63,373 nucleotides of DNA, from positions 1-63,373 of the IMG/VR virus record IMGVR_UViG_3300028854_000008; one strand, given 5' to 3'. Each line of letters starts with the position of its first letter. The stretch's first letter is position 1. The notes beneath the pieces were generated by a model that was given only the letters and a program-made list of their open reading frames with translations, was not told where the DNA came from and ran no database searches. The position numbers and the translations under genes are program-made. Below, in pieces: positions 11,451 through 63,373 of this stretch. Origin of the DNA: a virus (lineage: Duplodnaviria > Heunggongvirae > Uroviricota > Caudoviricetes).

Positions 11451-12905
11451 ATGCCAAAATTAAAAATACCAATTGAATTACAAAAATATGAAAATCCAAT
11501 GAAATGGGTTAAGGAGAATTGTAATCCAATTTTATTGGAAAATAAAAAATCAAAACATATTTTAATGTATTCTGCTTTGCATCCAGAAGATTCTCCAATT
11601 TGTAAATATTCTGGATTAATTAGAAAATATTCAAGAGAATTACAAAAATTTACTGAATGTATATTGGGCAAAAAATGTCAATGTCATAAAGATAAATATC
11701 AAGAAATTGTCATGAATCGAGGAAAAACTTGCATGGAAAGATATGGAGTGGCAAACCCAATGCAAGTTGAAGAAGTTAAAAATAAATTGTCAAACACTAA
11801 TTTAGAAAAATATGGTTTCAAAAATCCATTTAGTAACAAAGAAATTCAAAATAAAATCAAAAACACTAATTTGGAAAAATATGGTTGTGCTAATCCAGCA
11901 AGCAACGACACAATAAAAGAAAAAATCCAACATACTTGGAAAATGAATTATGGATGTCACCCTCAACAAACAAAAAATGTTAGAAATAAAACAGAGAAAA
12001 CTTGTATAGAAAAATATGGAGCAAAAACTCCATTTTTGAATACTAAAATCCAAAATAAAATTAAAGATTCAATGGTGAGCAATTATGGAGTGGAATATGC
12101 TCTCCAAAGCGAAGAATTTCAGAAAAAACAACAACATACAATATCCGAGCGATTTTGTTACGATGAAGATATGGAATATTATCCTGAATTAATAAAACGT
12201 ATGGAAGATTCTATGGTAAAATTGTATGGAGTTCACCGTGCTTTAGAACTGCCAAAATTTATGGATAAATTGAGAATAACAAATCAAAGAAATTACGGAT
12301 ATGAATTCGCAAGTCAGTCTCCAGAAATAAAACTTCAAGTTAAAAATTATTTTTTAAGAAAATATGATTGCGAAAATTATTCTCAATTGCATATAAGTAA
12401 AGAATCATTGAATATATTAAATGATCTTTCTAAATTAGAAGAAGTTGTTATATCTAATGGAATTCAAAATTCTTGTGTTAAATTAGGTATTTCCGAAAGC
12501 ACTTTATATAAGAGATTACGCAAATTGGATTCTTTTGTTTGCAGAGGAATGAGAAGTATAACAGAATTAGAAATAGACAATTGGCTTACAGAAAATAATA
12601 TTTTATTTGAATCAAATAATAGAACCCAAATTAAACCATATGAACTTGATTTTTATTTCTTTAAATATAATAAAGCCATAGAATTTCAAGGTGACTATTG
12701 GCATATGAATCCAACTATTTTTGAAGCTGATGATTTTAATGAAATAAAAAATAAAACAGCATTTGAAATTTGGAAATATGATTTAAATAAATTTGAATTG
12801 AGCAAAGCTAAACATATTGATATATTTTATATTTGGGAGTCTGATTGGAACTTAAATAAAGAAAAAATTAAATTGAAAGTTCTTGACTTTCTGAAGCAGT
12901 TGTAG
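11451..12905 (+). CDS. Homing-endonuclease-like protein with EKYG repeats and a C-terminal PD-(D/E)xK nuclease
   Basis: Repeated (T/N)xxEKYGxxNP units; C-terminal YELDFY...AIEFQGDYWH. Confidence 0.7.
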   Translation: MPKLKIPIELQKYENPMKWVKENCNPILLENKKSKHILMYSALHPEDSPICKYSGLIRKYSRELQKFTECILGKKCQCHKDKYQEIVMNRGKTCMERYGVANPMQVEEVKNKLSNTNLEKYGFKNPFSNKEIQNKIKNTNLEKYGCANPASNDTIKEKIQHTWKMNYGCHPQQTKNVRNKTEKTCIEKYGAKTPFLNTKIQNKIKDSMVSNYGVEYALQSEEFQKKQQHTISERFCYDEDMEYYPELIKRMEDSMVKLYGVHRALELPKFMDKLRITNQRNYGYEFASQSPEIKLQVKNYFLRKYDCENYSQLHISKESLNILNDLSKLEEVVISNGIQNSCVKLGISESTLYKRLRKLDSFVCRGMRSITELEIDNWLTENNILFESNNRTQIKPYELDFYFFKYNKAIEFQGDYWHMNPTIFEADDFNEIKNKTAFEIWKYDLNKFELSKAKHIDIFYIWESDWNLNKEKIKLKVLDFLKQL

Positions 12906-38010: not shown

Positions 38011-41000
38011 TTGAACGATTTTTTAGTTAACCCACACCCATCCCAAGTTACAGTATTTGAAGACAGCTTTTCTGAAGAAGTATGGTCAAATACATATAAA
38101 AATTATAAAGACAAAGATATTAATGATACTTTTAATCGTGTTGCACAAGCAATTGCAAGCGTAGAAAAAACAGAAGATTTAAGAAAAGAATGGGCAGAAA
38201 AATTTTATGATATGATGTGTAATTTTTCTGTCGTTCCTGGTGGAAGAATTTTAGCAAATGCAGGTACAGAATTTCGTGGAACAAGTTTAATTAATTGTTT
38301 TGTTGGTCCAACTCCAAAATATGATTGCGATAGTTTATCTGGAATTTTAGAAGTTTTAAGAAGCCAATCAATTACTTTAAAGAGCGAAGGTGGGTGGGGA
38401 AAGAATTTTTCTTTTATCCGACCAAGAGGAACTTTTATTAAAGGAATTGGTGTTGAAACTCCTGGAGCAGTAAAGTTTATGGAACTATTTGACAAGAGTT
38501 CTGAAATTATTACAGCAGGTTCTGGAAAGAAAGCTTCAAATAAAAAAGCAAAAGGAAAAATAAGAAAAGGGGCGATGATGGGAATTTTGGATATTTCCCA
38601 TCCTGACATTATTGAATTTATTACTATAAAGCAAACTTCCAATAGATTATCTAAATTTAATCTTAGTATAAACTGCTCTGATAAATTTATGGATAAAGTA
38701 TTGTTAGTTAGTAAATTAAAAAAAGAAAGTGGTAGCCAGGAACAAATCGATGAAATAACATGGGATCTAATTTTTCCAGATACAACTTATGAAAAATATA
38801 AAGAAGAATGGTGCGGCGATATTCAAGATTGGCAAGAAAAAAATTATCCAGTAATTGTTTATCAAACAGTAAAAGTAGATTGGTTATGGAACCTTATTAC
38901 TCAATCAACTTATTCAAGAAATGAACCTGGAATTTTATTTTTAGATCGTGCAAATAAATTTAATGAATTAAATTATGCTGAAAAAATATTTGCAAGTAAC
39001 CCATGTGTTACTTTGGATTCATGGGTAACAACAAGTCGCGGAGCAAAACAAGTTAAAGAATTATTGGGAATTCCATTTACTGCTATTGTTGATGGTATTT
39101 GTTGGAATAGTTCTGAAAAGGGATTTTTTGTATCAGGAAATAAGCCTATTTTAAAAATAAGTACAATAAATGGCTATACCTTAAAAGTTACAGAAAATCA
39201 TAAAATAAAAATTTTAAGAAATAATAAAATTGATTGGATTGCTGCTGGAAAATTATCTATTGGTGATCAAATTTTTATTAATAATCATTCGTCAGTAGAT
39301 GTTAAAATATCTGAAAAAAATGATGCTATTGGATATGCGTTAGGATTGCTGGTTGGGGACGGAAATATTAGTGGAAAAAATGCTCATTTATGTTCTTGGG
39401 GAAATACAGAAGGAGTTAAAAATGTTCGTAATAAAGTTATGCAAGAATTGCTTCAATATGCTTCTCCAGCAAAAACTTTTAAAGGATGGCATGAAGTAAA
39501 AGGAAGAAATGAATATCGAATTCAATTTAAGGATTTGCATTCTTATGCAATATCATATGGACTTACTTCATCAAATAAACATGTAAATAAAACAATTGAA
39601 GAAGATATTTATATCAGCAAAGGATTTATTCGTGGGATGTTTGATGCTTATGGGTCTGTTCAAGGAAATAGAGATACAGGTTTGAGTATTCGTCTAAGTC
39701 AAAGCAATTTAGAAGATTTGCAAGCAATTCAACGAATGTTAGTTAGATGGGGAATTGTTTCTACCATATATGAAAACAAGAGAGATGAATGTTTGAAGGA
39801 TATGCCTGATGGAAAAGGTGGAAAAAAAGAATATCTATGTAAAGCAAATCATGAATTGGTATTATCTAAAAGTAATATAGAAAAATATTTAAATATTATT
39901 GGATTTTATGATTCAGATAAAAAAGAAAAATGTGAAAGACTTTTAACTGAATATGTTTATGGATTACATAAAGAAACATATTTAGCAGAAATATCCTCAA
40001 TTGAAAATTTTCCAAATGAAATTGTAGCGGATTGCGAAATCCCTGGAATTAATGCATTTGATTGTAATGGATTGGTAATTTCAAATTGCGGAGAGCAATT
40101 ACTTTCAAATGAAAATATTTGTTGTTTGGGATCTTTAAATCTAACTCAATTTATTAATAAAAATAGAACTGGATTTGATTTACATAAATTAGCGAAATAT
40201 ACAAAATATTTAATAAGATTTTTGGATAATGTAAATGATTATTCAGATGCTCCTCTTCCAGAATACATTAATTCAATGAGAAATAAACGAAGAATTGGCG
40301 CAGGATTAATGGGATGGGGAAGCGCATTATTTATTCTCAAAGTCAAATATGGTTCCAAAGAATCAACAAAGCTAAGAACTGAAATTTTAAAAACTTATAC
40401 ATTGGCTGGTGTTGAAGCGTCATTGGATTTAGCTGATGAAAAAGGAATGTTTAATTTATGTGAGCCAGAAAAACATGCCTTTAGTCCATATTGGGATAAT
40501 ATTGATTTGCCAGAAAATCTTCGTAAAAGAATTCTCAAGAATGGTATTAGAAATTCTTCACTATTTAGTTGCCAACCAACAGGAAATGCTGGTGTAACAG
40601 CTCAGATTGTATCGGGTGGAATTGAGCCCGTATTTATGTCTGAATATATTAGAACAGTTATCGTATCTTCAACGCCGGATCATATTAAAGATGTAACTCC
40701 AAATTGGAATCAAGGAGAATGGGCTGAGACTAATATGTTTAAATTCTCCCAAGAAGGAGATGAGCAAATTTTACGCGGTGTGGATAGTAATGGAGTTGTA
40801 TATAAAATCGATAAAAATAGAGGATTAACAAAAGAAGTTCTATGTCAGGATTATGGAGTTAGATATTTAACTAAATTTGGAGAGTGGAATCCTTCTGCTG
40901 ATTGGGCAGCAACAACTACTTCTTTATCAGTCAAAGATCATTTGGTTGAATTAGAGGGATTTGCAAAATATTTAGATAGCAGTGTATCAAAAACGATTAA

Positions 41001-41682
41001 TATTCCCAATGATTATCTATTTGAAGATTTTCAAAATATATATTTAGATGCATACAATACTGGGTATATCAAAGGATGTACCACATATCGTTCTGGATCA
41101 ATGACTTCTGTTCTTTCAGCAGTTGATCAAAAAAATGATGATATAGATGAAGAAGTTATTTTAGAAGATGTAAAATTGCCTGATAATATGTCTGCTGAAA
41201 TGAAAGTTCTGCATGATCATGAAGGTGATAGTAGTCGTAAATGGTATGTAACGATTAGTTTGAATGAAAATAAAGCACCAGTGGCAATATTTGTTCAAAC
41301 CAATGCAATGGAAAAATCAGTAACAACGAATGATGCTATTGAAAAATTATTTGCGTTGGCTAAAGTAAAAGGTATTCCAGAACAATATATAGAATCAACA
41401 TTTAAAAAATGCAATAATGATTCTAATAGTGTTAAAATTGCTAGAGCAATCGGATTATTATTACGTCATGGAGTAAGAATCAAATATATTGTTGCTGAAA
41501 TAGATAAAGTTGATGGCGTTACTTTTTCAAGTTTTCTATTTCATATTAAAAAGATGCTGGGAAGTTTTGTGAAAGATGGCGAAAAAATTGATGGGGCCAA
41601 ATGCACAGAATGTAATGGTCAACTTGTTTATGAATCAGGGTGCCAGAAATGCCTGCAATGTGGAAATTCAAAATGCGGATGA
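38011..41682 (+). CDS. nrdJ: Class II (B12-dependent) ribonucleotide reductase with intein, C-terminal TSCPD-like domain and Zn ribbon
   Basis: PGGRILANAG, LINCFV, NP-[intein]-CGEQ, CCLGSLNL, RRIGAGLMG, QPTGN, SVSKTIN, KGCTTYR; terminal CxxC...CxxCGxSKCG. Confidence 0.9.
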   Translation: MNDFLVNPHPSQVTVFEDSFSEEVWSNTYKNYKDKDINDTFNRVAQAIASVEKTEDLRKEWAEKFYDMMCNFSVVPGGRILANAGTEFRGTSLINCFVGPTPKYDCDSLSGILEVLRSQSITLKSEGGWGKNFSFIRPRGTFIKGIGVETPGAVKFMELFDKSSEIITAGSGKKASNKKAKGKIRKGAMMGILDISHPDIIEFITIKQTSNRLSKFNLSINCSDKFMDKVLLVSKLKKESGSQEQIDEITWDLIFPDTTYEKYKEEWCGDIQDWQEKNYPVIVYQTVKVDWLWNLITQSTYSRNEPGILFLDRANKFNELNYAEKIFASNPCVTLDSWVTTSRGAKQVKELLGIPFTAIVDGICWNSSEKGFFVSGNKPILKISTINGYTLKVTENHKIKILRNNKIDWIAAGKLSIGDQIFINNHSSVDVKISEKNDAIGYALGLLVGDGNISGKNAHLCSWGNTEGVKNVRNKVMQELLQYASPAKTFKGWHEVKGRNEYRIQFKDLHSYAISYGLTSSNKHVNKTIEEDIYISKGFIRGMFDAYGSVQGNRDTGLSIRLSQSNLEDLQAIQRMLVRWGIVSTIYENKRDECLKDMPDGKGGKKEYLCKANHELVLSKSNIEKYLNIIGFYDSDKKEKCERLLTEYVYGLHKETYLAEISSIENFPNEIVADCEIPGINAFDCNGLVISNCGEQLLSNENICCLGSLNLTQFINKNRTGFDLHKLAKYTKYLIRFLDNVNDYSDAPLPEYINSMRNKRRIGAGLMGWGSALFILKVKYGSKESTKLRTEILKTYTLAGVEASLDLADEKGMFNLCEPEKHAFSPYWDNIDLPENLRKRILKNGIRNSSLFSCQPTGNAGVTAQIVSGGIEPVFMSEYIRTVIVSSTPDHIKDVTPNWNQGEWAETNMFKFSQEGDEQILRGVDSNGVVYKIDKNRGLTKEVLCQDYGVRYLTKFGEWNPSADWAATTTSLSVKDHLVELEGFAKYLDSSVSKTINIPNDYLFEDFQNIYLDAYNTGYIKGCTTYRSGSMTSVLSAVDQKNDDIDEEVILEDVKLPDNMSAEMKVLHDHEGDSSRKWYVTISLNENKAPVAIFVQTNAMEKSVTTNDAIEKLFALAKVKGIPEQYIESTFKKCNNDSNSVKIARAIGLLLRHGVRIKYIVAEIDKVDGVTFSSFLFHIKKMLGSFVKDGEKIDGAKCTECNGQLVYESGCQKCLQCGNSKCG
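39004..40086 (+). mobile_element. Intein (361 aa) with LAGLIDADG homing-endonuclease domain inserted at the RNR active-site NPCxE motif
   Basis: Starts CVTLDSW, block B VTENH, LGLLVGDG and GMFDAYG motifs, ends VISN before extein Cys. Confidence 0.92.
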
Positions 41683-58305: not shown

Positions 58306-58485
58306 ATGCACCCTTATGACCAGCTAGTAAAGGATATGCTTGCTTGGGTGCATGAGCAAAGCACACCTAAATGTTCGTGGTGCGAAAGACAATTCGCTGT
58401 TAGTCAAGGTTTTTGCTCTCAGAACTGCTGCAACGAACAAAGAGAATACGAACGTAAGCACGGTATTGCAGCCGATACTCTGTAA
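58306..58485 (+). CDS. Small zinc-finger protein, 59 aa (not in ORF track)
   Basis: GGAGG SD; CSWC...FCSQNC. Confidence 0.6.
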   Translation: MHPYDQLVKDMLAWVHEQSTPKCSWCERQFAVSQGFCSQNCCNEQREYERKHGIAADTL

Positions 58486-58514
58486 GGTATCACTGAATGT
58501 ATTAAAATAATTTT

Positions 58515-58664
58515 GGCTAGGCCAGTCTTCAGAGATTGGCTCTCTGATCGCAGTTGCTGACGGCAGAGTGACATAATATAGAGGGGTTCATACATAAAAT
58601 CCTTGCAACAGGAAAAGATATGGATGAGTATATAAAGATGGTTAAACTCCATCCCTAGCCACCA
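58515..58664 (+). ncRNA. Expanded tRNA-like RNA (150 nt)
   Basis: Perfect acceptor GGCTAGG/CCTAGCC, A-CCA end, T-arm GATGG-TTAAACT-CCATC, ~75 extra internal nt. Confidence 0.7.
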
Positions 58665-58682
58665 AATTTATAAAGGAAAAAT

Positions 58683-58880
58683 ATGAAATTTATACCAAAC
58701 TATTCAAAGGCCCCAGACATTGGCGAAGAAAAGATTAAGAGAAAATTTATAATTTTTCCTCGCCAATGCCCAATGACTGGGACATATTATTTTCTGCAAA
58801 CTTGCACATTTCACTATAAATATGGCTCATTTTGTAGCGATACCAATGATTATTGGTATCTAGTAAAAATTACTGATTAA
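58683..58880 (+). CDS. Small hypothetical protein (paralog of 59326)
   Basis: FIIFPRQCPMTGTYYFL. Confidence 0.6.
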   Translation: MKFIPNYSKAPDIGEEKIKRKFIIFPRQCPMTGTYYFLQTCTFHYKYGSFCSDTNDYWYLVKITD

Positions 58881-58893
58881 GAAAGGCAAAATT

Positions 58894-59112
58894 ATGATGT
58901 GTAATTCATGTGGAAGCATAAGAATATTGGAAGTATCTGGAAAAGTTTCAGATGCGTGTTTTATTACTTTTGCAAATGAGGAGCATGATGGATATGTTCC
59001 TTATAATTTAAGAATTGGAGGCGGGGATTATTTAGAATTTAATCTCTGTATGGAGTGTGGGAAAGTGCAAGGAAAATTTCCAGTTGCTGAAGTGAATCTT
59101 GAAGGAAGATAA
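58894..59112 (+). CDS. Small Zn-ribbon-like protein
   Basis: CNSCGS...CMECG. Confidence 0.65.
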   Translation: MMCNSCGSIRILEVSGKVSDACFITFANEEHDGYVPYNLRIGGGDYLEFNLCMECGKVQGKFPVAEVNLEGR

Positions 59113-59329
59113 GAAATTAACTATGATTTCGCTGAGCCCTCAATTGTGGCTGCCGTTTTATAGAAGAAATAAAGATGGAACTATTGTATTTAATGGTTCT
59201 ATTGGTTGTTTAACAGATGATTGTAAATACTGGAATGATAAAAGTTGTAATCCAGGAGTTAAAGACAATAATCCAGATTTATGTAAATTGCCACAAGATC
59301 CTTGGTGGCCAGATTGGAGTAAATTATGA
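59099..59329 (+). CDS. Small hypothetical protein
   Basis: 76 aa. Confidence 0.5.
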   Translation: MKEDKKLTMISLSPQLWLPFYRRNKDGTIVFNGSIGCLTDDCKYWNDKSCNPGVKDNNPDLCKLPQDPWWPDWSKL

Positions 59330-59541
59330 GATGGAAAGCACAAAAGAATATAAAAATTGGAACAGTTAGAATATTTCATCATTTTGCACTTTTTCCTATA
59401 ACTTGCCCAATGAGTGGCACTACTTATTGGTTGGAATGGGTTAATGTTTCTCAACAAATGGATTGCCCTCTTAAATGGGATTCTATAGGATTTAAGAATG
59501 ATAATAGCAAAAAATATTGGAAAGTAGTTAAAATAAATTAG
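59326..59541 (+). CDS. Small hypothetical protein
   Basis: FALFPITCPMSGTTYWL. Confidence 0.6.
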   Translation: MRWKAQKNIKIGTVRIFHHFALFPITCPMSGTTYWLEWVNVSQQMDCPLKWDSIGFKNDNSKKYWKVVKIN

Positions 59542-59548
59542 GAGAATT

Positions 59549-59791
59549 ATGAATTATTGGATAATTATTATTCCAACAGTTGAAACATTTGTTTTCTATG
59601 GATGGGAAAGAGAAGCATTTTTTGAAACTGAGAATAAATCAAAATGGTATAATGTTAAAGGAAAATATAAACTTGCAGATAAAAAAGATCCCAAAGATTT
59701 TGAAATGGTTCAATTGGAAATCATAGGATCGCAGCAAGATAGAAAAGCGCAATCTGATATTCCTTATATGCCAAGAGAGGGATGGTTTTAA
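59549..59791 (+). CDS. Small hypothetical protein
   Basis: 80 aa with AGGAG SD. Confidence 0.6.
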   Translation: MNYWIIIIPTVETFVFYGWEREAFFETENKSKWYNVKGKYKLADKKDPKDFEMVQLEIIGSQQDRKAQSDIPYMPREGWF

Positions 59792-59870
59792 ATGATTAAG
59801 TGGGAGATAAATATTTTAAAATAATTTTGCATTTATTAAAAATTTACAAATTCTCAGGATAAATAAATAT

Positions 59871-60044
59871 ATGAAGAGCATGATTACAACTGATACAATT
59901 TCTAAAAATATTTTACGAGAAGTGAAATATGATGCTACAGGAAATGTTATTACTAATGGAGAATTTATTACAGTGAAAGACGGCGGGCAAATATTAAATC
60001 AAAATAAATTTGCAGCCGCTGATAAATTCGGAGTATATTTGTAA
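59871..60044 (+). CDS. Small late protein, 57 aa (not in ORF track)
   Basis: ATAAATA at 59859; followed by a terminator. Confidence 0.5.
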   Translation: MKSMITTDTISKNILREVKYDATGNVITNGEFITVKDGGQILNQNKFAAADKFGVYL

Positions 60045-60067
60045 ACGCCAGGATTCAAAAAGATTTA

Positions 60068-60095
60068 AAAGATCCTGGCGAAAGTCAGGATCTTT
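60068..60095 (+). terminator. Intrinsic terminator hairpin
   Basis: AAAGATCCTGGC-GAAA-GTCAGGATCTTT. Confidence 0.75.
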
Positions 60096-60204
60096 CATTT
60101 GCAGTAAAGAATAGTTATCCGTTCCGCTTCACGTTAACCGAGCACTCTTTATAAAGAGAATGGAAAATATCAAAGATAACTATAATGTAGTAAAAATGTT
60201 TTAT

Positions 60205-60279
60205 GGGGCAGTAGCTCAGAGGGAGAGCGCTGCGTTAGCATCGCAGAGGTCGAGATTTCAAAATTCTCCTGCTCCACCA
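60205..60279 (+). tRNA. tRNA-Ala, anticodon AGC
   Basis: G3:U70; stem CTGCG/CGCAG, loop TT-AGC-AT; encoded CCA. Confidence 0.9.
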
Positions 60280-60353
60280 TAAAGTTTTTGCTTGGGGTGG
60301 TTACTTATTTGACAGATTTATATAAACGAATTAAAGATTGGAATGAAAAATAT

Positions 60354-60425
60354 GGGGAATAAGTGTTGATAGGAGCACGATAGATTCGCAATTTATAAGG
60401 GTGAGGGCAGTTCTCACATTCTCCA
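60354..60425 (+). tRNA. tRNA-Ala, anticodon CGC, non-canonical T-loop (GGCAGTT)
   Basis: GGGGAAT/ATTCTCC with G3:U70; loop TT-CGC-AA; no encoded CCA. Confidence 0.7.
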
Positions 60426-60426
60426 C

Positions 60427-60487
60427 AAGTTATTGAAAATAAAGCACTTATTTTTTACTTGACAAATGATCTAGAATTTAGTATTAT
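60427..60487 (+). promoter_or_regulatory. Conserved upstream element plus sigma70-like promoter for tRNA-Ala(TGC)
   Basis: AAGTTATTGAAAATAAAGCACTTA; TTGACA(60459)-N17-TATTAT. Confidence 0.75.
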
Positions 60488-60506
60488 TAAAGAGTAGCAA
60501 GAATAT

Positions 60507-60599
60507 GGGCTATGGGGCTGCTAGGGTGGCCACTGGTTTTGCACTCCAGAATCATCGAGAAATCGATACAGCGGGATTCAAATTCCCGATAGTCCACCA
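60507..60599 (+). tRNA. tRNA-Ala, anticodon TGC, with long class II variable arm
   Basis: GGGCTAT/ATAGTCC with G3:U70; loop TT-TGC-AC; V-arm ATCGA-GAAA-TCGAT; CCA. Confidence 0.85.
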
Positions 60600-60610
60600 A
60601 AAAATTTAGG

Positions 60611-60639
60611 TTGACAAACAAAGTAAAGTTTGATAGTAT
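60611..60639 (+). promoter_or_regulatory. sigma70-like promoter driving the large ncRNA and downstream tRNAs
   Basis: TTGACA-N17-TAGTAT, followed by AAAGAGTAGCAAGAA as at 60489. Confidence 0.75.
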
Positions 60640-60645
60640 AAAAGA

Positions 60646-61056
60646 GTAGCAAGAAATTGGTGCAACACAGCACGAAGTAGCACTCCAAATGCAGCGAATG
60701 AGAATTCGTTCAACAGATGGACAGACACATAATGTTTACTTGTAAAAGTGTTCTGACCTTAACGTGCCTGCGATAGTGAGTTGAATGGTGAAATGCCAGA
60801 AGAAAGTTCACCAGCCAATGAAGTTTAAAAATCGCTTTAGTAGCGATCTGATAGTAAATCAGTTCAGGAAGTATTTGACAATTGAAGAGAATATTGCAGA
60901 GCAACAGTGCTCTGTTTGAATATGAAAGTTACACCCGCCTACGTGGCAGTCCTAACTGAGACAGCATCACGACTTCAGGTGGCACGATGGTTGTAACGGG
61001 GCAAGCTTTCAGACTAATTAACAATTAGCGGCTGCGTACTGCCCGTAAAGTACGCA
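60646..61056 (+). ncRNA. Putative large (~400 nt) structured non-coding RNA
   Basis: Own promoter, no credible ORF, GC-richer than flanks, at least 10 helices including nested long-range stems; ends before an AAAGTTT spacer. Confidence 0.75.
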
Positions 61057-61076
61057 TAAAGTTTTGAAGTAAATAT

Positions 61077-61162
61077 GCCGTAATGGTGGAACGGAATACA
61101 CTTTGGACTTAAAATCCAACGCTCTTATGAGATTGAGGGTTCAAATCCCTCTTACGGCACCA
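61077..61162 (+). tRNA. tRNA-Leu(TAA)
   Basis: TTGGA-CTTAAAA-TCCAA, long V-arm, CCA. Confidence 0.92.
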
Positions 61163-61173
61163 AAAAGTTTAGT

Positions 61174-61291
61174 AGATCAATAGCTCAATTGGTTAGAGCA
61201 ACGAGATTAACAGATCAAGTCGTAAAGCCACAAGCCTAAGATACTTGAAGTCACTCGTCGGTTGAAGGTTCGAGTCCTTCTTGATTTACTA
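61174..61291 (+). tRNA. tRNA body with a 41-nt insertion in the anticodon loop (anticodon ambiguous, possibly TAA)
   Basis: AGATCAA/TTGATTT acceptor, canonical D- and T-arms, stem ACGAG/CTCGT enclosing 48 nt. Confidence 0.75.
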
Positions 61292-61300
61292 GAAAAGTTT

Positions 61301-61419
61301 AACTCTGAGTCGCAAGACTATCGAAGTGACTAGGAAACTAGCTGGCATAACGAAATATTATGTTGGACCTTGAGAGTGACCACAGATGAATCTCAGTGAA
61401 AGCTAGAGATTTCAGAGTT
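61301..61419 (+). ncRNA. Putative ~120-nt multi-hairpin RNA
   Basis: Closing stem AACTCTGA/TCAGAGTT; hairpins AGTC-GCAA-GACT, CTAG-GAAA-CTAG, GCATAA/TTATGT, AATCTC/GAGATT; flanked by AAAGTTT spacers. Confidence 0.65.
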
Positions 61420-61429
61420 ATAAAGTTTT

Positions 61430-61506
61430 GCCGCGTTCGTATAACGGATTATTATGCTCCGCCTTTAACGGAATCGATATGGGTTCAAATCCCATGCGCG
61501 GCACCA
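61430..61506 (+). tRNA. tRNA-Lys(TTT), atypical C33
   Basis: TCCG/CGGA stem, loop CC-TTT-AA, A73, CCA. Confidence 0.75.
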
Positions 61507-61520
61507 AAGTTTAGATGTAT

Positions 61521-61597
61521 GCGTTCGTCGTATAGCGGCTTATTATACTTGTCTCTTAAACAAGCTGACGTGAGTTCAAATCTCACCGAACGCACCA
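61521..61597 (+). tRNA. tRNA-Lys(CTT)
   Basis: CTTGT-CTCTTAA-ACAAG, CCA. Confidence 0.92.
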
Positions 61598-61613
61598 AAA
61601 GTTTTATAGTTAT

Positions 61614-61730
61614 GAGATTGTAGCTCAATTGGTAGAGCAACGCCCTTTTTTCGGGATGCTTCTTTGAGAGAGCATTCGATGGATGCTTTCAAAAAGGCGC
61701 AGGTTGTGGGTTCGATTCCCACCAGTCTCA
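61614..61730 (+). tRNA. tRNA-Lys(TTT)-like body with a 44-nt insertion in the anticodon loop
   Basis: GAGATTG/CAGTCTC acceptor; CGCC-CTTTT...AA-GGCG enclosing 51 nt. Confidence 0.78.
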
Positions 61731-61785
61731 CAAAGATTTGAAATTAAAACCATCTTCGCATAAATAAAGATGGAGGATCAATTAA

Positions 61786-62400
61786 ATGCCATTAGTAAAT
61801 TGTCCAAAATGTAATACTGAATTTGAGAATAAAGGAAAATGGGGAACCAAAAAATTTTGTAGTAGAAAATGTGCCAATTCAAAAGATCGGCCACAAGAGT
61901 TAAGAGATAGAGTTTCTAAAAAATTAAAAGGAAGAATTGGAAAAAGTATTTTTCTTTCTCCAGAGAAACTCATAAGTCGTAATCTTAAACTTAGAAAAAC
62001 TTGGGATTTAAAATATGAGAATATTCCATTTGAAGAACTTTCTTGGGATTTACAAAGATTGCGAGTAATAAAAGAACAAAATAATTCTTGCGGAAAATGT
62101 GAAATTACTGAATGGTTTGAAAATCCAATAACTTTAGAAGTTGATCATATAGATGGAAACCGAAAGAATAATTGTAGAGAAAATTTAATTGCTATTTGTC
62201 CAAATTGTCATAGTATTACTACAACATGGCGCGGAAGAAATAGAAAAACTGTGGATTATAAAACTGATGAAGAAATTTTAAATGTTATTTTACAAACTGA
62301 AAATATTCATCAAGCATTAAAATTTCTAAATATGGCATGTCGAGGAGCCAATTATAAAAGATTACAACAGTTAATGGAAAAAAATAATATCTCTTACTAA
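61786..62400 (+). CDS. HNH endonuclease embedded in the tRNA cluster
   Basis: N-terminal CPKC...FCSRKC; CGKC...LEVDHIDGNRKNNCRENLIAICPNCH. Confidence 0.9.
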   Translation: MPLVNCPKCNTEFENKGKWGTKKFCSRKCANSKDRPQELRDRVSKKLKGRIGKSIFLSPEKLISRNLKLRKTWDLKYENIPFEELSWDLQRLRVIKEQNNSCGKCEITEWFENPITLEVDHIDGNRKNNCRENLIAICPNCHSITTTWRGRNRKTVDYKTDEEILNVILQTENIHQALKFLNMACRGANYKRLQQLMEKNNISY

Positions 62401-62406
62401 ATTTAT

Positions 62407-62511
62407 AGCCGTATAGCTCAATTGGTTCAGAGCATTCCCCTTATTTAGGGCCTGTGCATCAGACCTTAAATAAGGGAAAGGTTGATGGTTCGATCCCATC
62501 TACGGCTACCA
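62407..62511 (+). tRNA. tRNA-Ile-like body (anticodon TAT or AAT) with a 27-nt insertion in the anticodon loop
   Basis: AGCCGTA/TACGGCT acceptor, TTCCC/GGGAA stem enclosing 34 nt, CCA. Confidence 0.8.
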
Positions 62512-62526
62512 CAAAGTTTAAATGTT

Positions 62527-62586
62527 GGCTTGTAGCATAATTGGCAATGTGTGACCCTGTTAAGGTCAAAGATGATGGTCCAGCCA
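62527..62586 (+). pseudogene. Degenerate tRNA-Asn(GTT) lacking most of the T-arm
   Basis: TGACC-CTGTTAA-GGTCA intact; T-loop and 3' T-stem missing. Confidence 0.65.
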
Positions 62587-62597
62587 AAATTTAAAGT

Positions 62598-62716
62598 TTC
62601 GCTGTAGGGAAAATATACCCCGCTGCATGAGGCAGAAAGATATTGAGGGGCTGGTCAACGGCTATAGACGCCCAGTGAGTAAATATTTGATGGTGCAAAT
62701 CCATCCGGCGATACCA
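62598..62716 (+). ncRNA. tRNA-like RNA with a ~55-nt variable-region insertion; identity unclear
   Basis: TCGCTG/CGGCGA acceptor, GGG/CCC D-stem, CTGC/GCAG arm, T-arm GATGG-TGCAAAT-CCATC, A-CCA. Confidence 0.6.
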
Positions 62717-62723
62717 ATTTTAT

Positions 62724-62858
62724 GGGATGGTAGCTCAGTAGAAGAGCAATGGCTATGAGGGGTAGTCTAGCGACGGTTAGATGAGACTCAAGTGCAAAAG
62801 TCATACGTCGAGAAGTCTGAAGGCCAAGGACATTGTGCAAATCCCTCTCATCCCATCA
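62724..62858 (+). ncRNA. tRNA-like RNA with a ~60-nt insertion in the anticodon arm and a degenerate T-stem
   Basis: GGGATGG/TCATCCC acceptor, canonical D-arm, TGGCT/GGCCA stem enclosing a long insert. Confidence 0.55.
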
Positions 62859-62930
62859 ATTTTAAAGAAAAGATGTTGGGTTCAATGGTCCGACTTCAAA
62901 CTAACGTTAAGTCAAGTTTGAATAGTTTAA

Positions 62931-63004
62931 GCGGGGATAGTTTAAATAGTAGAATATCTGAGTTTCCGCTCAGAAGATGGGTTGCAAGTACCCTAACCGC
63001 TCCA
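62931..63004 (+). tRNA. Degenerate tRNA-Gly(TCC)
   Basis: GCG...CGC-T-CCA Gly identity; two acceptor mismatches; 6-nt anticodon loop. Confidence 0.6.
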
Positions 63005-63015
63005 ATTTTATATAT

Positions 63016-63100
63016 GCGGGAGAAGCCTACTTGGTATGGCACTGGTCTTCCAAACCAGAGATGAAAATCGCTGCGAGTTCAAATCTCGTCTCCCGCTCCA
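63016..63100 (+). tRNA. tRNA-Gly(TCC) with extended variable arm
   Basis: CTGGT-CTTCCAA-ACCAG, U73, V-region GAT-GAAA-ATC hairpin, CCA. Confidence 0.88.
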
Positions 63101-63135
63101 TATTTATACATATGGAATAAAGGAAGAAAATTAAA

Positions 63136-63309
63136 ATGAAATATTGGTGTAAAAATTGTGAACATCTTCTGCCATTGAAGAACAATGAAAGAACAGAAAA
63201 TTTCAAAGAATGGTGGATAGAAAATCGAGAACAATTCAGAGAACTGCATCTCAATGGAGAGTGTGAAATAAAAACAACTCAGATACAGAAGGTGAATTTA
63301 TATGCATAA
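63136..63309 (+). CDS. Small hypothetical protein, 57 aa (not in ORF track)
   Basis: SD AAGGA; MKYWCKNC. Confidence 0.5.
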   Translation: MKYWCKNCEHLLPLKNNERTENFKEWWIENREQFRELHLNGECEIKTTQIQKVNLYA

Positions 63310-63373
63310 ACTTTTGTTTTTCTTAGCATTTGTTATAATTGTATTTGTGGTGCATATGTTGAAGTGTAAATAA

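Follow-up and report, generated by a model that had tools for sequence, protein, structure and literature searches.

Three transfer RNA (tRNA) genes in a genome fragment of a large uncultured bacteriophage, IMG/VR record IMGVR_UViG_3300028854_000008, are split by inserts of 27–44 nucleotides (nt) inside the anticodon loop, and a fourth gene of the same tRNA array carries a longer insert with a conserved structure. The window analyzed here is the first 63,373 nt of this record, which comprises 127,373 nt with 33% G+C and is estimated to be 49% complete. The three split genes of the window are named A (61174), B (61614) and C (62407); the fourth, a tRNA-Asn gene, lies outside the window. To our knowledge, bacteria and phages remove tRNA introns solely by self-splicing ribozymes. 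Inserts of 27–50 nt cannot self-splice, yet they sit here in tRNAs for the commonest codons of the phage. Our preferred reading, to which we give a probability of about 45%, is that the inserts of A, B, C and the tRNA-Asn gene are short introns that do not self-splice, of the kind called "enigmatic" in Lak megaphages, and that they would be excised by nucleases and resealed by ligases of the phage.

Anatomy of the Split tRNA Genes

The Rfam tRNA model RF00005 (gathering score 29 bits; wider search of 58400–63373 at E ≤ 10) matches A at 61174–61288 with 52.2 bits, B at 61614–61730 with 58.1 bits and C at 62407–62508 with 58.3 bits, in each case over model positions 1–71. All four stems are intact in the three genes, and their scores exceed those of several working neighbors (e.g., 42.6 bits at 61430). 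The sole anomaly in the alignments is a stretch of 45, 47 and 30 nt, respectively, where the model has 3–4 anticodon-loop positions. The anticodon loops span 61206–61253 (48 nt) in A, 61645–61695 (51 nt) in B and 62440–62473 (34 nt) in C, which leaves inserts of 41, 44 and 27 nt beyond a 7-nt loop. ARAGORN misses all three genes by default and detects all three in intron mode (Table 1).

A previous reading of the window from its sequence only had described six expanded tRNAs as one family, with inserts inside the anticodon loop at 61174, 61614 and 62407. The position of these three inserts is borne out by the RF00005 alignments and by ARAGORN, and the three genes are expanded tRNAs at 52–58 bits. 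The other three loci, 58515, 62598 and 62724, fail the tRNA model and stand outside the split-gene set, so the six-member family falls apart. The inserts of A, B and C are unrelated in sequence, as had been stated: none is a repeated element. An origin from a dispersed repeat or a miniature inverted-repeat transposable element was ruled out, because each insert is unique in the genome and among all loci compared. The CCA end, said to be often kept, is encoded at 58515, 62407 and 62598, whereas the 3′ ends at 61174, 61614 and 62724 read A-CTA, A-CAA and A-TCA.

Removal of the insert from B gives CUUUUAA (Lys) and from C gives CUUAUAA (Ile); both loops have 7 nt, with U33 in place and a purine as base 37. 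The boundary of the C insert is ambiguous by at most 2 nt toward the 5′ side, and the three equivalent cut points all give CUUAUAA. C shares with A the A1–U72 pair and A73 that are typical of tRNA-Ile.

The anticodon arms were folded alone and compared with 300 shuffles each. The arm of C is far more stable than expected (z = −5.55, none of the 300 shuffles as stable); its insert converts the arm into a rod of 13 + 3 base pairs (bp) that buries the anticodon, which is fully paired (P(unpaired) = 0). The arm of B is stable to a lesser degree (z = −2.5, 2 of 300 shuffles as stable), and its anticodon is partly paired.

An Insert-Less Lysine Allele in a Relative

A direct view of gene B without its insert is offered by the relative L001, whose NAMPT protein is 85% identical to that of the phage and whose syntenic place holds Lys(CUU), Lys(UUU) and Ile(UAU), the last two at L001:20415–20587. 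The ortholog of B (L001:20415–20492) is insert-less, has the loop CCTTTAA and encodes CCA. B aligns to this gene on both flanks of a clean 44-nt gap; its loop reads CTTTT, then the insert, then AA, with all seven loop positions kept. The alignment therefore identifies B as a tRNA-Lys(UUU) gene that is interrupted between positions 36 and 37. The acceptor pairs 2–71 and 7–66 differ between the two genes by compensatory changes. BLAST against about 270 fetched loci gave no homolog of A, C, 58515, 62598 or 62724, and an exact-pattern scan of IMG/VR for the 3′ exon of C gave no match. Short metagenome contigs with close NAMPT homologs stop before the array.

A Conserved Insert in tRNA-Asn

The fourth split gene lies at genome position 67295–67420 and carries a 50-nt anticodon-loop insert (ARAGORN intron mode). 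Its U1–A72 pair and G73 mark it, by comparison with E. coli tRNA-Asn, as a tRNA-Asn, and the loop CUGUUAA is restored only by a cut between U35 and U36. L001 has the same arrangement with different stem sequences. Six more such inserts were found by pattern scans, two in IMG/VR (L030, L031) and four distinct ones in metagenomes (L040, L049, L073, L124), so that the Asn insert is present in eight distinct contigs with one common design. In this design, CUGU is followed by G, a 6-bp stem and a GG-containing segment. A second stem of 5 bp, capped by a UUCRAWU loop, comes next; the 6-bp stem is then closed by its 3′ strand, and AAAAG and UAA follow. The insert has the form of a miniature tRNA top half, with seven acceptor-like layers (the first G·A), a T stem of five pairs capped by a T-like loop, and the four-base 3′ tail AAAG.

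Across the eight aligned contigs, 96% of cells are paired and compensatory changes occur in 13 of 16 pairs; none of 500 shuffles reaches the score, and pairing falls to 22–45% once the partners are slid. CTGTG, the loop motif and AAAAGTAA were the fixed parts of the search pattern, which left the stems free; the covariation is therefore independent of how the sequences were found. Across the whole tRNA array of L001, ARAGORN detects no tRNA-Asn other than the interrupted gene. The same pattern gave four chance matches, none of them in a tRNA, in representative genomes of 185,579 prokaryotic species. Judged by this covariation, the Asn insert is clearly under selection, and anticodon-loop inserts in this lineage are therefore not all decay. 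Two insert shapes occur in one genome: the conserved mini-tRNA top half of the Asn gene and the plain hairpins of the window, which lack the acceptor-like stem, T-arm-like hairpin and 4-nt tail of that shape.

The tRNA-Cluster Endonuclease and the RNA-Repair Genes

A free-standing HNH endonuclease gene lies between tRNA B and tRNA C (Table 1). The C-terminal half of its product is 41% identical to that of an HNH gene located 7 nt upstream of the tRNA array of the T4-like phage ACG-C40, which is annotated as similar to T5 TflIV. Full-length homologs, 38% identical, are encoded by Yersinia phage fHe-Yen9-04 and Erwinia phage pEa_SNUABM_50, where both genes lie about 60 nt after an oversized gene, a tRNA-Undet of 121 nt in the former and a tRNA-Lys(ttt) of 122 nt in the latter. 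By its motif and its tRNA-adjacent homologs in several phages, the HNH gene at 61786–62400 is assigned to the tRNA-cluster type. A peptide-pattern scan of IMG/VR for further relatives gave three weak matches only.

The two cultured jumbo phages hold further tRNA-like genes of 114–126 nt (fHe-Yen9-04, L275:170–283, 993–1118 and 2003–2123; pEa_SNUABM_50, L280:661–776 and 2310–2431), annotated as Pseudo, Undet, Lys(ttt) or Phe(aaa). In these genes, the D arm is separated from an anticodon loop of normal appearance by a hairpin of GATTC/GAATC type followed by CAGCA or CGGCA, and several oversized IMG/VR matches have a similar hairpin followed by ACAGCA. By this shared layout, the hairpin-bearing genes of the jumbo phages and IMG/VR appear to be a separate, widespread family.

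Three RNA-repair genes of the contig lie within 5 kb of each other: that of a T4-type Pnkp (genome 103585–104550) and those of two ligases (genome 105128–106228 and 107201–108298), one from the Rnl1 family and one from the Rnl2 family. Three genes of the RNA-ligase family are present in total: the Rnl1-type gene, the Rnl2-type gene and a fragment that has an in-frame TAG. A cRec domain protein is encoded among the tRNA genes (Table 1); cRec has been proposed to open 2′,3′-cyclic phosphates, and proposed roles of the repair enzymes have been described (PMC7824862). Like the anatomy of the split genes, the insert-less allele and the conservation of the Asn insert, this enzyme inventory is a direct observation.

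A Possible Route From Insertion to Splicing

We infer excision, the nucleases behind it and ligation from a geometry that would fit them. The inserts may have arisen as DNA in a recombination-active tRNA cluster stirred by the HNH homing endonuclease, and they may shield the interrupted genes from this enzyme, as in collaborative homing. In the transcript, both ends of an insert would be cut by endonucleases, and the inserts would be tolerated because the tRNA body holds the halves together meanwhile. The repair enzymes of the phage (Pnkp, the Rnl1-type and Rnl2-type ligases and cRec) would then reseal the tRNA halves. A tRNA nicked in the anticodon loop is the textbook substrate of a phage RNA ligase.

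The two insert shapes could be cut in different ways. In the Asn insert, the 5′ boundary would fall at an RNase P-like site and the 3′ boundary, four bases beyond the stem, would resemble the end of a mature tRNA. In B and C, if U33–U36 pair with A38 and the three bases before A38, the exon ends, with five bases on the 5′ side and two on the 3′ side, would carry a 2-nt 3′ overhang such as RNase III-type enzymes produce; a ligase could join such ends directly. It is possible, though we would sooner expect it to fail than to hold in full, that the hairpin introns are taken out by proteins only, in a pathway put together from housekeeping and repair enzymes, with a staggered cut, RNase P for the mini-tRNA and direct ligation.

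Weighing the Readings

Several observations weigh against the intron reading. No excision restores a canonical loop in A, every option leaving A32 and C37, and the fold of its arm is not significant (z = −0.9, 48 of 300 shuffles as stable), with the anticodon mostly unpaired. A and B lack an encoded CCA, whereas the ortholog of B has one. No homolog of the A, B and C inserts was found in any collection searched, and covariation in their hairpins thus cannot be counted; these genes are private to this genome and could therefore be very recent lethal insertions. Uninterrupted paralogs of B and of the Asn gene exist in this genome, and both split genes are possibly dispensable. The insertion points differ (35/36 in Asn, 36/37 in Lys), which disfavors a single ruler-type enzyme. 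A tRNA-Asn pseudogene begins 15 nt downstream of C, and a degenerate tRNA-Gly(UCC)-like copy lies at window 62931–63001 (Rfam 29.4 bits), directly upstream of an intact tRNA-Gly. No candidate splicing endonuclease was identified on the contig; as the contig represents about 49% of the genome, gene absences carry little weight.

The hairpins of A, B and C can also be seen as recent by-products of break repair or recombination near the HNH gene that are never removed, which would make the three genes insertional pseudogenes and 62598 and 62724 cases of later decay. This is the strongest competitor, and we consider it somewhat unlikely. The private inserts, the missing CCA in A and B and the noncanonical loop of A all agree with it, as do the intact Lys(UUU) and Ile(UAU) genes at the syntenic place in L001, the intact Lys(UUU) at 61430 and the debris nearby, which includes a T-arm-deleted tRNA-Asn copy, the degenerate Gly-like 62931 and two unclassifiable tRNA-likes. 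Decay, however, does not predict intact stems with scores of 52–58 bits, above several working neighbors, nor inserts that in C and B are self-complementary far beyond chance and pair with the anticodon. It would also leave the genome without Ile(UAU) despite an ATA frequency of 19 per thousand, and the Asn insert of the same array is plainly under selection.

Inserts that stay in place would instead make the genes non-decoding tRNA-likes, acting as decoys or as anticodon-shielded reserves against anticodon nucleases of the host. Such nucleases favor U-rich anticodon loops, such as those of Lys-UUU and Asn-GUU, and Lys-UUU is a target of PrrC-type nucleases. The split genes belong to tRNAs for ANN codons with U-rich loops, the anticodon is fully paired in C and partly in B, and the heavy investment of the phage in tRNA repair implies nuclease pressure. 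A nuclease that reads the loop should not recognize a buried one, however, exact retention of the seven loop bases would be needless for a decoy, and in L001 the interrupted Asn gene is the sole tRNA-Asn detected. A decoy or shield is thus unlikely.

Another proposal, which we hold very unlikely, is that the tRNA frame serves only to bring a hairpin, or the 58515 RNA, to RNase P and the 3′-end enzymes, so that the released piece is a functional small RNA. Precedents are the stable RNAs in the tRNA cluster of T4 and the tRNA-microRNA chimeras of herpesviruses. The RNA at 58515 agrees with it, with a tRNA top half and ACCA and no decoding parts, as does a second such RNA at genome 120903–121056. 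The hairpins of A, B and C, by contrast, are unrelated, unconserved and short, they have no significant complementarity to neighboring non-coding RNAs, and the preservation of the loop bases would be left unexplained.

Introns of archaeal or eukaryal type, in which a bulge-helix-bulge is cut by an EndA-family endonuclease and joined by RtcB, have a similar size range and anticodon-loop site. They are common in giant viruses of eukaryotes: an IMG/VR screen with one D-arm/T-arm spacing pattern gave more than 100 interrupted tRNA genes with the same D arm (L153–L270), many of which hold introns of eukaryote type, in Tyr(GUA) and Ile(UAU), and lie on giant-virus contigs. An intron-bearing viral tRNA is therefore unusual only with a bacterial host, as here. 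No junction in this phage has two 3-nt bulges around a 4-bp helix, however; C forms a continuous helix, while A, B and Asn form asymmetric internal loops, and the insertion points are not 37/38. The tailed phage has a LigA-type ligase, DnaB, sigma-70-like promoters and encoded CCA ends, and tRNA_int_endo (EndA) and RtcB were not found in the 127-kb contig (about 49% of the genome). We regard this type of intron as highly improbable.

Self-splicing group I or group II introns are scarcely credible, even though the Asn insert comes after U and ends in G: a group I core (P3–P9) takes at least about 200 nt, and inserts of 27–50 nt are too short. The wider Rfam search gave no intron family, only tRNAs and chance-level matches to unrelated families.

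The sequence-only reading had offered phage introns as one of its options, and this option is the best supported for A, B, C and the Asn gene, though not for the other three loci that it had flagged. The background it gave on introns stands: the inserts are too short for group I or II, no bulge-helix-bulge is present, and tRNA introns in huge phages are published (Devoto et al., 2019). Its further claim of a hairpin in every insert holds strongly for C and fairly well for B, but the fold of A is not significant. Its argument that compensated inserts speak against decay proves weaker than stated, since the A, B and C inserts have no homologs, only B and C are structured and a fresh tRNA-Asn pseudogene is adjacent. 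Alignment of homologous loci, which it had proposed, yielded the insert-less Lys allele in L001 and the Asn covariation and no homologs of the A, B and C inserts, and its proposed search for repair and splicing genes yielded Pnkp and the Rnl1-type and Rnl2-type ligases on the contig, where RtcB and EndA were not found.

Loci Outside the tRNA Model

At 58515, 62598 and 62724, RF00005 gives no match even at E ≤ 10, and pairwise comparison with 88 phage tRNAs gave no informative match. We read 58515 from its predicted fold as a free-standing tRNA-like RNA rather than an expanded tRNA. Its 7-bp acceptor stem is perfectly paired, a T arm of 5 bp and ACCA are present, and D and anticodon arms are missing (fold z = −3.1); ARAGORN reports it only once the threshold is lowered to 70%, and then with anomalous loops. 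A custom top-half scanner finds 0–3 far weaker cases per shuffled genome, and the tRNA-like scanner found no counterpart in relatives. A second RNA of this kind lies at genome 120903–121056 (154 nt); its top half comprises a 7-bp acceptor, the T arm ACCGG/TTCAACT/CCGGT and ACCA, and its large interior is unlike a tRNA.

Two readings exist for 62598: either a cloverleaf with a 51-nt variable-region hairpin, a 1–72 mismatch and a 5-nt anticodon loop (fold z = −0.5) or, at the lowered ARAGORN threshold, a tRNA with a 40-nt anticodon-loop insert and A33. At 62724 (fold z = −1.35), an overlapping ARAGORN call at the 70% threshold is offset and non-credible. Judged by these features, 62598 and 62724 are probably relics, the latter rearranged. 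Their origin by partial duplication was ruled out, as no internal matches were found. An unusual TGCAA(A/G)T T loop is common to 62598, 62724 and the 62931 copy.

Between C and these relics, the tRNA-Asn pseudogene at 62526–62587 is identical to the gene at genome position 66810 over 59 of 59 aligned nt (including 6 nt of leader), after which 16 nt of the T arm are deleted. On this identity, it is a very recent duplication with a deletion and marks rearrangement and decay in the sub-region.

The Phage Contig and Its tRNA Array

Its gene content places the virus among the tailed phages of bacterial type: the contig encodes tail-fiber proteins, a DnaB-like helicase, a primase and an NAD-dependent (LigA-type) DNA ligase, sigma-70-like promoters are present and most tRNA genes encode CCA. 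The tRNA array spans 60.2–85.2 kb (genome positions) on the + strand and counts 29 Rfam matches or 33 genes by ARAGORN intron mode. The commonest codons of the phage are AAA (62 per thousand) and AAT (59 per thousand), and ATA is used at 19 per thousand; the split genes therefore meet heavy demand. ARAGORN found no uninterrupted tRNA-Ile(UAU) on the contig. The promoter at 60611–60639 supports co-transcription of the split genes with ordinary tRNAs, as predicted by a consensus scan whose promoter total is no higher than in shuffles.

Table 1. Features of the split-gene region and its surroundings. Positions refer to the window unless marked as genome positions.
Feature	Position	Strand	Description and basis
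RNA at 58515	58515–58664	+	Free-standing tRNA-like RNA, 150 nt; tRNA top half, three hairpins replace D and anticodon arms
Promoter	60611–60639	+	Last strong sigma-70-like promoter upstream of the A–B stretch; TTGACA, 17 nt, TAGTAT, with TG; consensus scan
tRNA A	61174–61289	+	Ile-like body (A1–U72, A73), 41-nt insert at about 61210–61250; Rfam; ARAGORN -i, Ile(tat)
tRNA-Lys(UUU) and tRNA-Lys(CUU)	61430–61597	+	Uninterrupted, directly upstream of tRNA B; ARAGORN, Rfam
tRNA B	61614–61731	+	Lys(UUU), 44-nt insert 61650–61693 between U36 and A37; Rfam; insert-less ortholog
HNH endonuclease gene	61786–62400	+	Free-standing; 55 nt after tRNA B, 7 nt before tRNA C; Pfam HNH_3/HNH
tRNA C	62407–62511	+	Ile(UAU), 27-nt insert 62445–62471, CCA encoded; Rfam; ARAGORN Ile(tat), 27-nt intron
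tRNA-Asn pseudogene	62526–62587	+	T-arm-deleted duplicate of intact tRNA-Asn(GUU) at genome position 66810; Rfam 31.5 bits
Locus 62598	62598–62717	+	Ambiguous tRNA-like gene; good T arm, ACCA; ARAGORN only at 70% threshold
Locus 62724	62724–62858	+	Degenerate tRNA-like gene; acceptor and D arms intact, T stem unpaired, about 70 nt extra
cRec domain protein	genome 70110–70478		Interleaved with tRNA genes
R2K ATP-grasp protein	genome 78612–79382		Interleaved with tRNA genes
Second HNH gene	genome 80168–80785		Interleaved with tRNA genes
RNA-ligase fragment	genome 81708–82172		Interleaved with tRNA genes

Two non-coding stretches lie inside the cluster. About 400 nt behind the promoter (60640–61060) hold no credible open reading frame (ORF) and give no Rfam match, and the 130-nt spacer between tRNA A and tRNA-Lys (61295–61425) has a 9-bp closing stem, AACTCTGAG / TTCAGAGTT, and no ORF. 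A guide-RNA or trans-ribozyme role was rejected: the longest complementarity between the insert regions and the RNAs of 60640–61060, 61295–61425 and 58515 is 5–8 nt, a chance level that at least 13% of shuffles reach (27–200 of 200). Elsewhere in the window, a 484-amino-acid homing endonuclease gene (11451–12905) directly follows the DnaB-like helicase gene. The large subunit of ribonucleotide reductase (38011–41682) matches its family in two blocks, residues 41–336 and 693–1222, and this split match suggests an intein or other insertion.

Implications

If the inserts are spliced, they would define a protein-based route of tRNA splicing undescribed in bacteria or phages, a third route, and would give the phage RNA ligase and Pnkp a programmed substrate beyond damage repair. 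A homing endonuclease could then spread into essential tRNA genes with no need of a ribozyme. Without splicing, the array would show erosion of phage tRNA genes by homing endonucleases, or the building of tRNA decoys. The value of this genome is that both insert shapes, an insert-less sister allele and a full set of repair enzymes occur together. Bench tests are made possible by the cultured Yersinia and Erwinia jumbo phages, which have oversized tRNA-like genes near a homologous endonuclease.

Comparison With Known Systems

The closest precedent is found in the Lak megaphages, whose "enigmatic" tRNA introns, one of them tRNA-shaped, were given without a mechanism (Devoto et al., 2019, Nat Microbiol, PMC6784885). 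In the full-text literature searched, short hairpin introns in bacteriophage tRNAs were not described beyond that paper, and a 2020 survey of huge phages does not mention introns. As in Lak, the inserts here are short, lie in the anticodon loop of huge-phage tRNAs and are detected only in the intron mode of a tRNA finder; the insert is missing from some sister genomes, as that of B is from L001, and the Asn insert is tRNA-shaped, as is one Lak intron. Unlike these, the inserts of A, B and C form plain hairpins that are neither tRNA-shaped nor conserved, and the host and phage lineage differ. Two Lak introns in Table S6 measure 76 and 93 nt, against 27–44 nt in the window (PMC6784885). This window contributes the plain-hairpin variant with its insert-less sister allele, beside a gene for a tRNA-cluster homing endonuclease.

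The tRNA introns known so far from bacteria and phages are group I introns in anticodon loops (PMC3984707). They share with the present inserts a varying position in the anticodon loop, presence/absence polymorphism and an association with homing endonucleases (PMC3984707), whereas the inserts described here are five to ten times too short for a ribozyme core. Archaeal and eukaryal introns (EndA/TSEN with RtcB or Trl1) resemble the present ones in size, in the pairing of anticodon and intron and in needing an endonuclease and a ligase, but there is no bulge-helix-bulge here, the position is not 37/38, no EndA or RtcB was found on the contig (about 49% of the genome) and the virus is of bacterial type.

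In the tRNA repair of T4, Pnkp and Rnl1 reseal the anticodon-loop break made by PrrC. The same heal-and-seal enzymes are encoded by the present phage, and a tRNA nicked in the anticodon loop is the intermediate that splicing would create. The break in T4, however, is damage inflicted by the host and not a programmed excision, and the tRNA genes of T4 have no inserts. Free-standing homing endonucleases of tRNA clusters include SegB of T4 and the HNH enzymes F-Tfl of T5, and collaborative homing is known for F-CphI with the psbA intron of a cyanophage. Like SegB and F-Tfl, the HNH gene of the window belongs to a tRNA cluster, and its distance of 7 nt to a tRNA gene equals that in ACG-C40. As a further parallel, the genes on either side are interrupted at their most conserved segment; the inserts may confer immunity on them.

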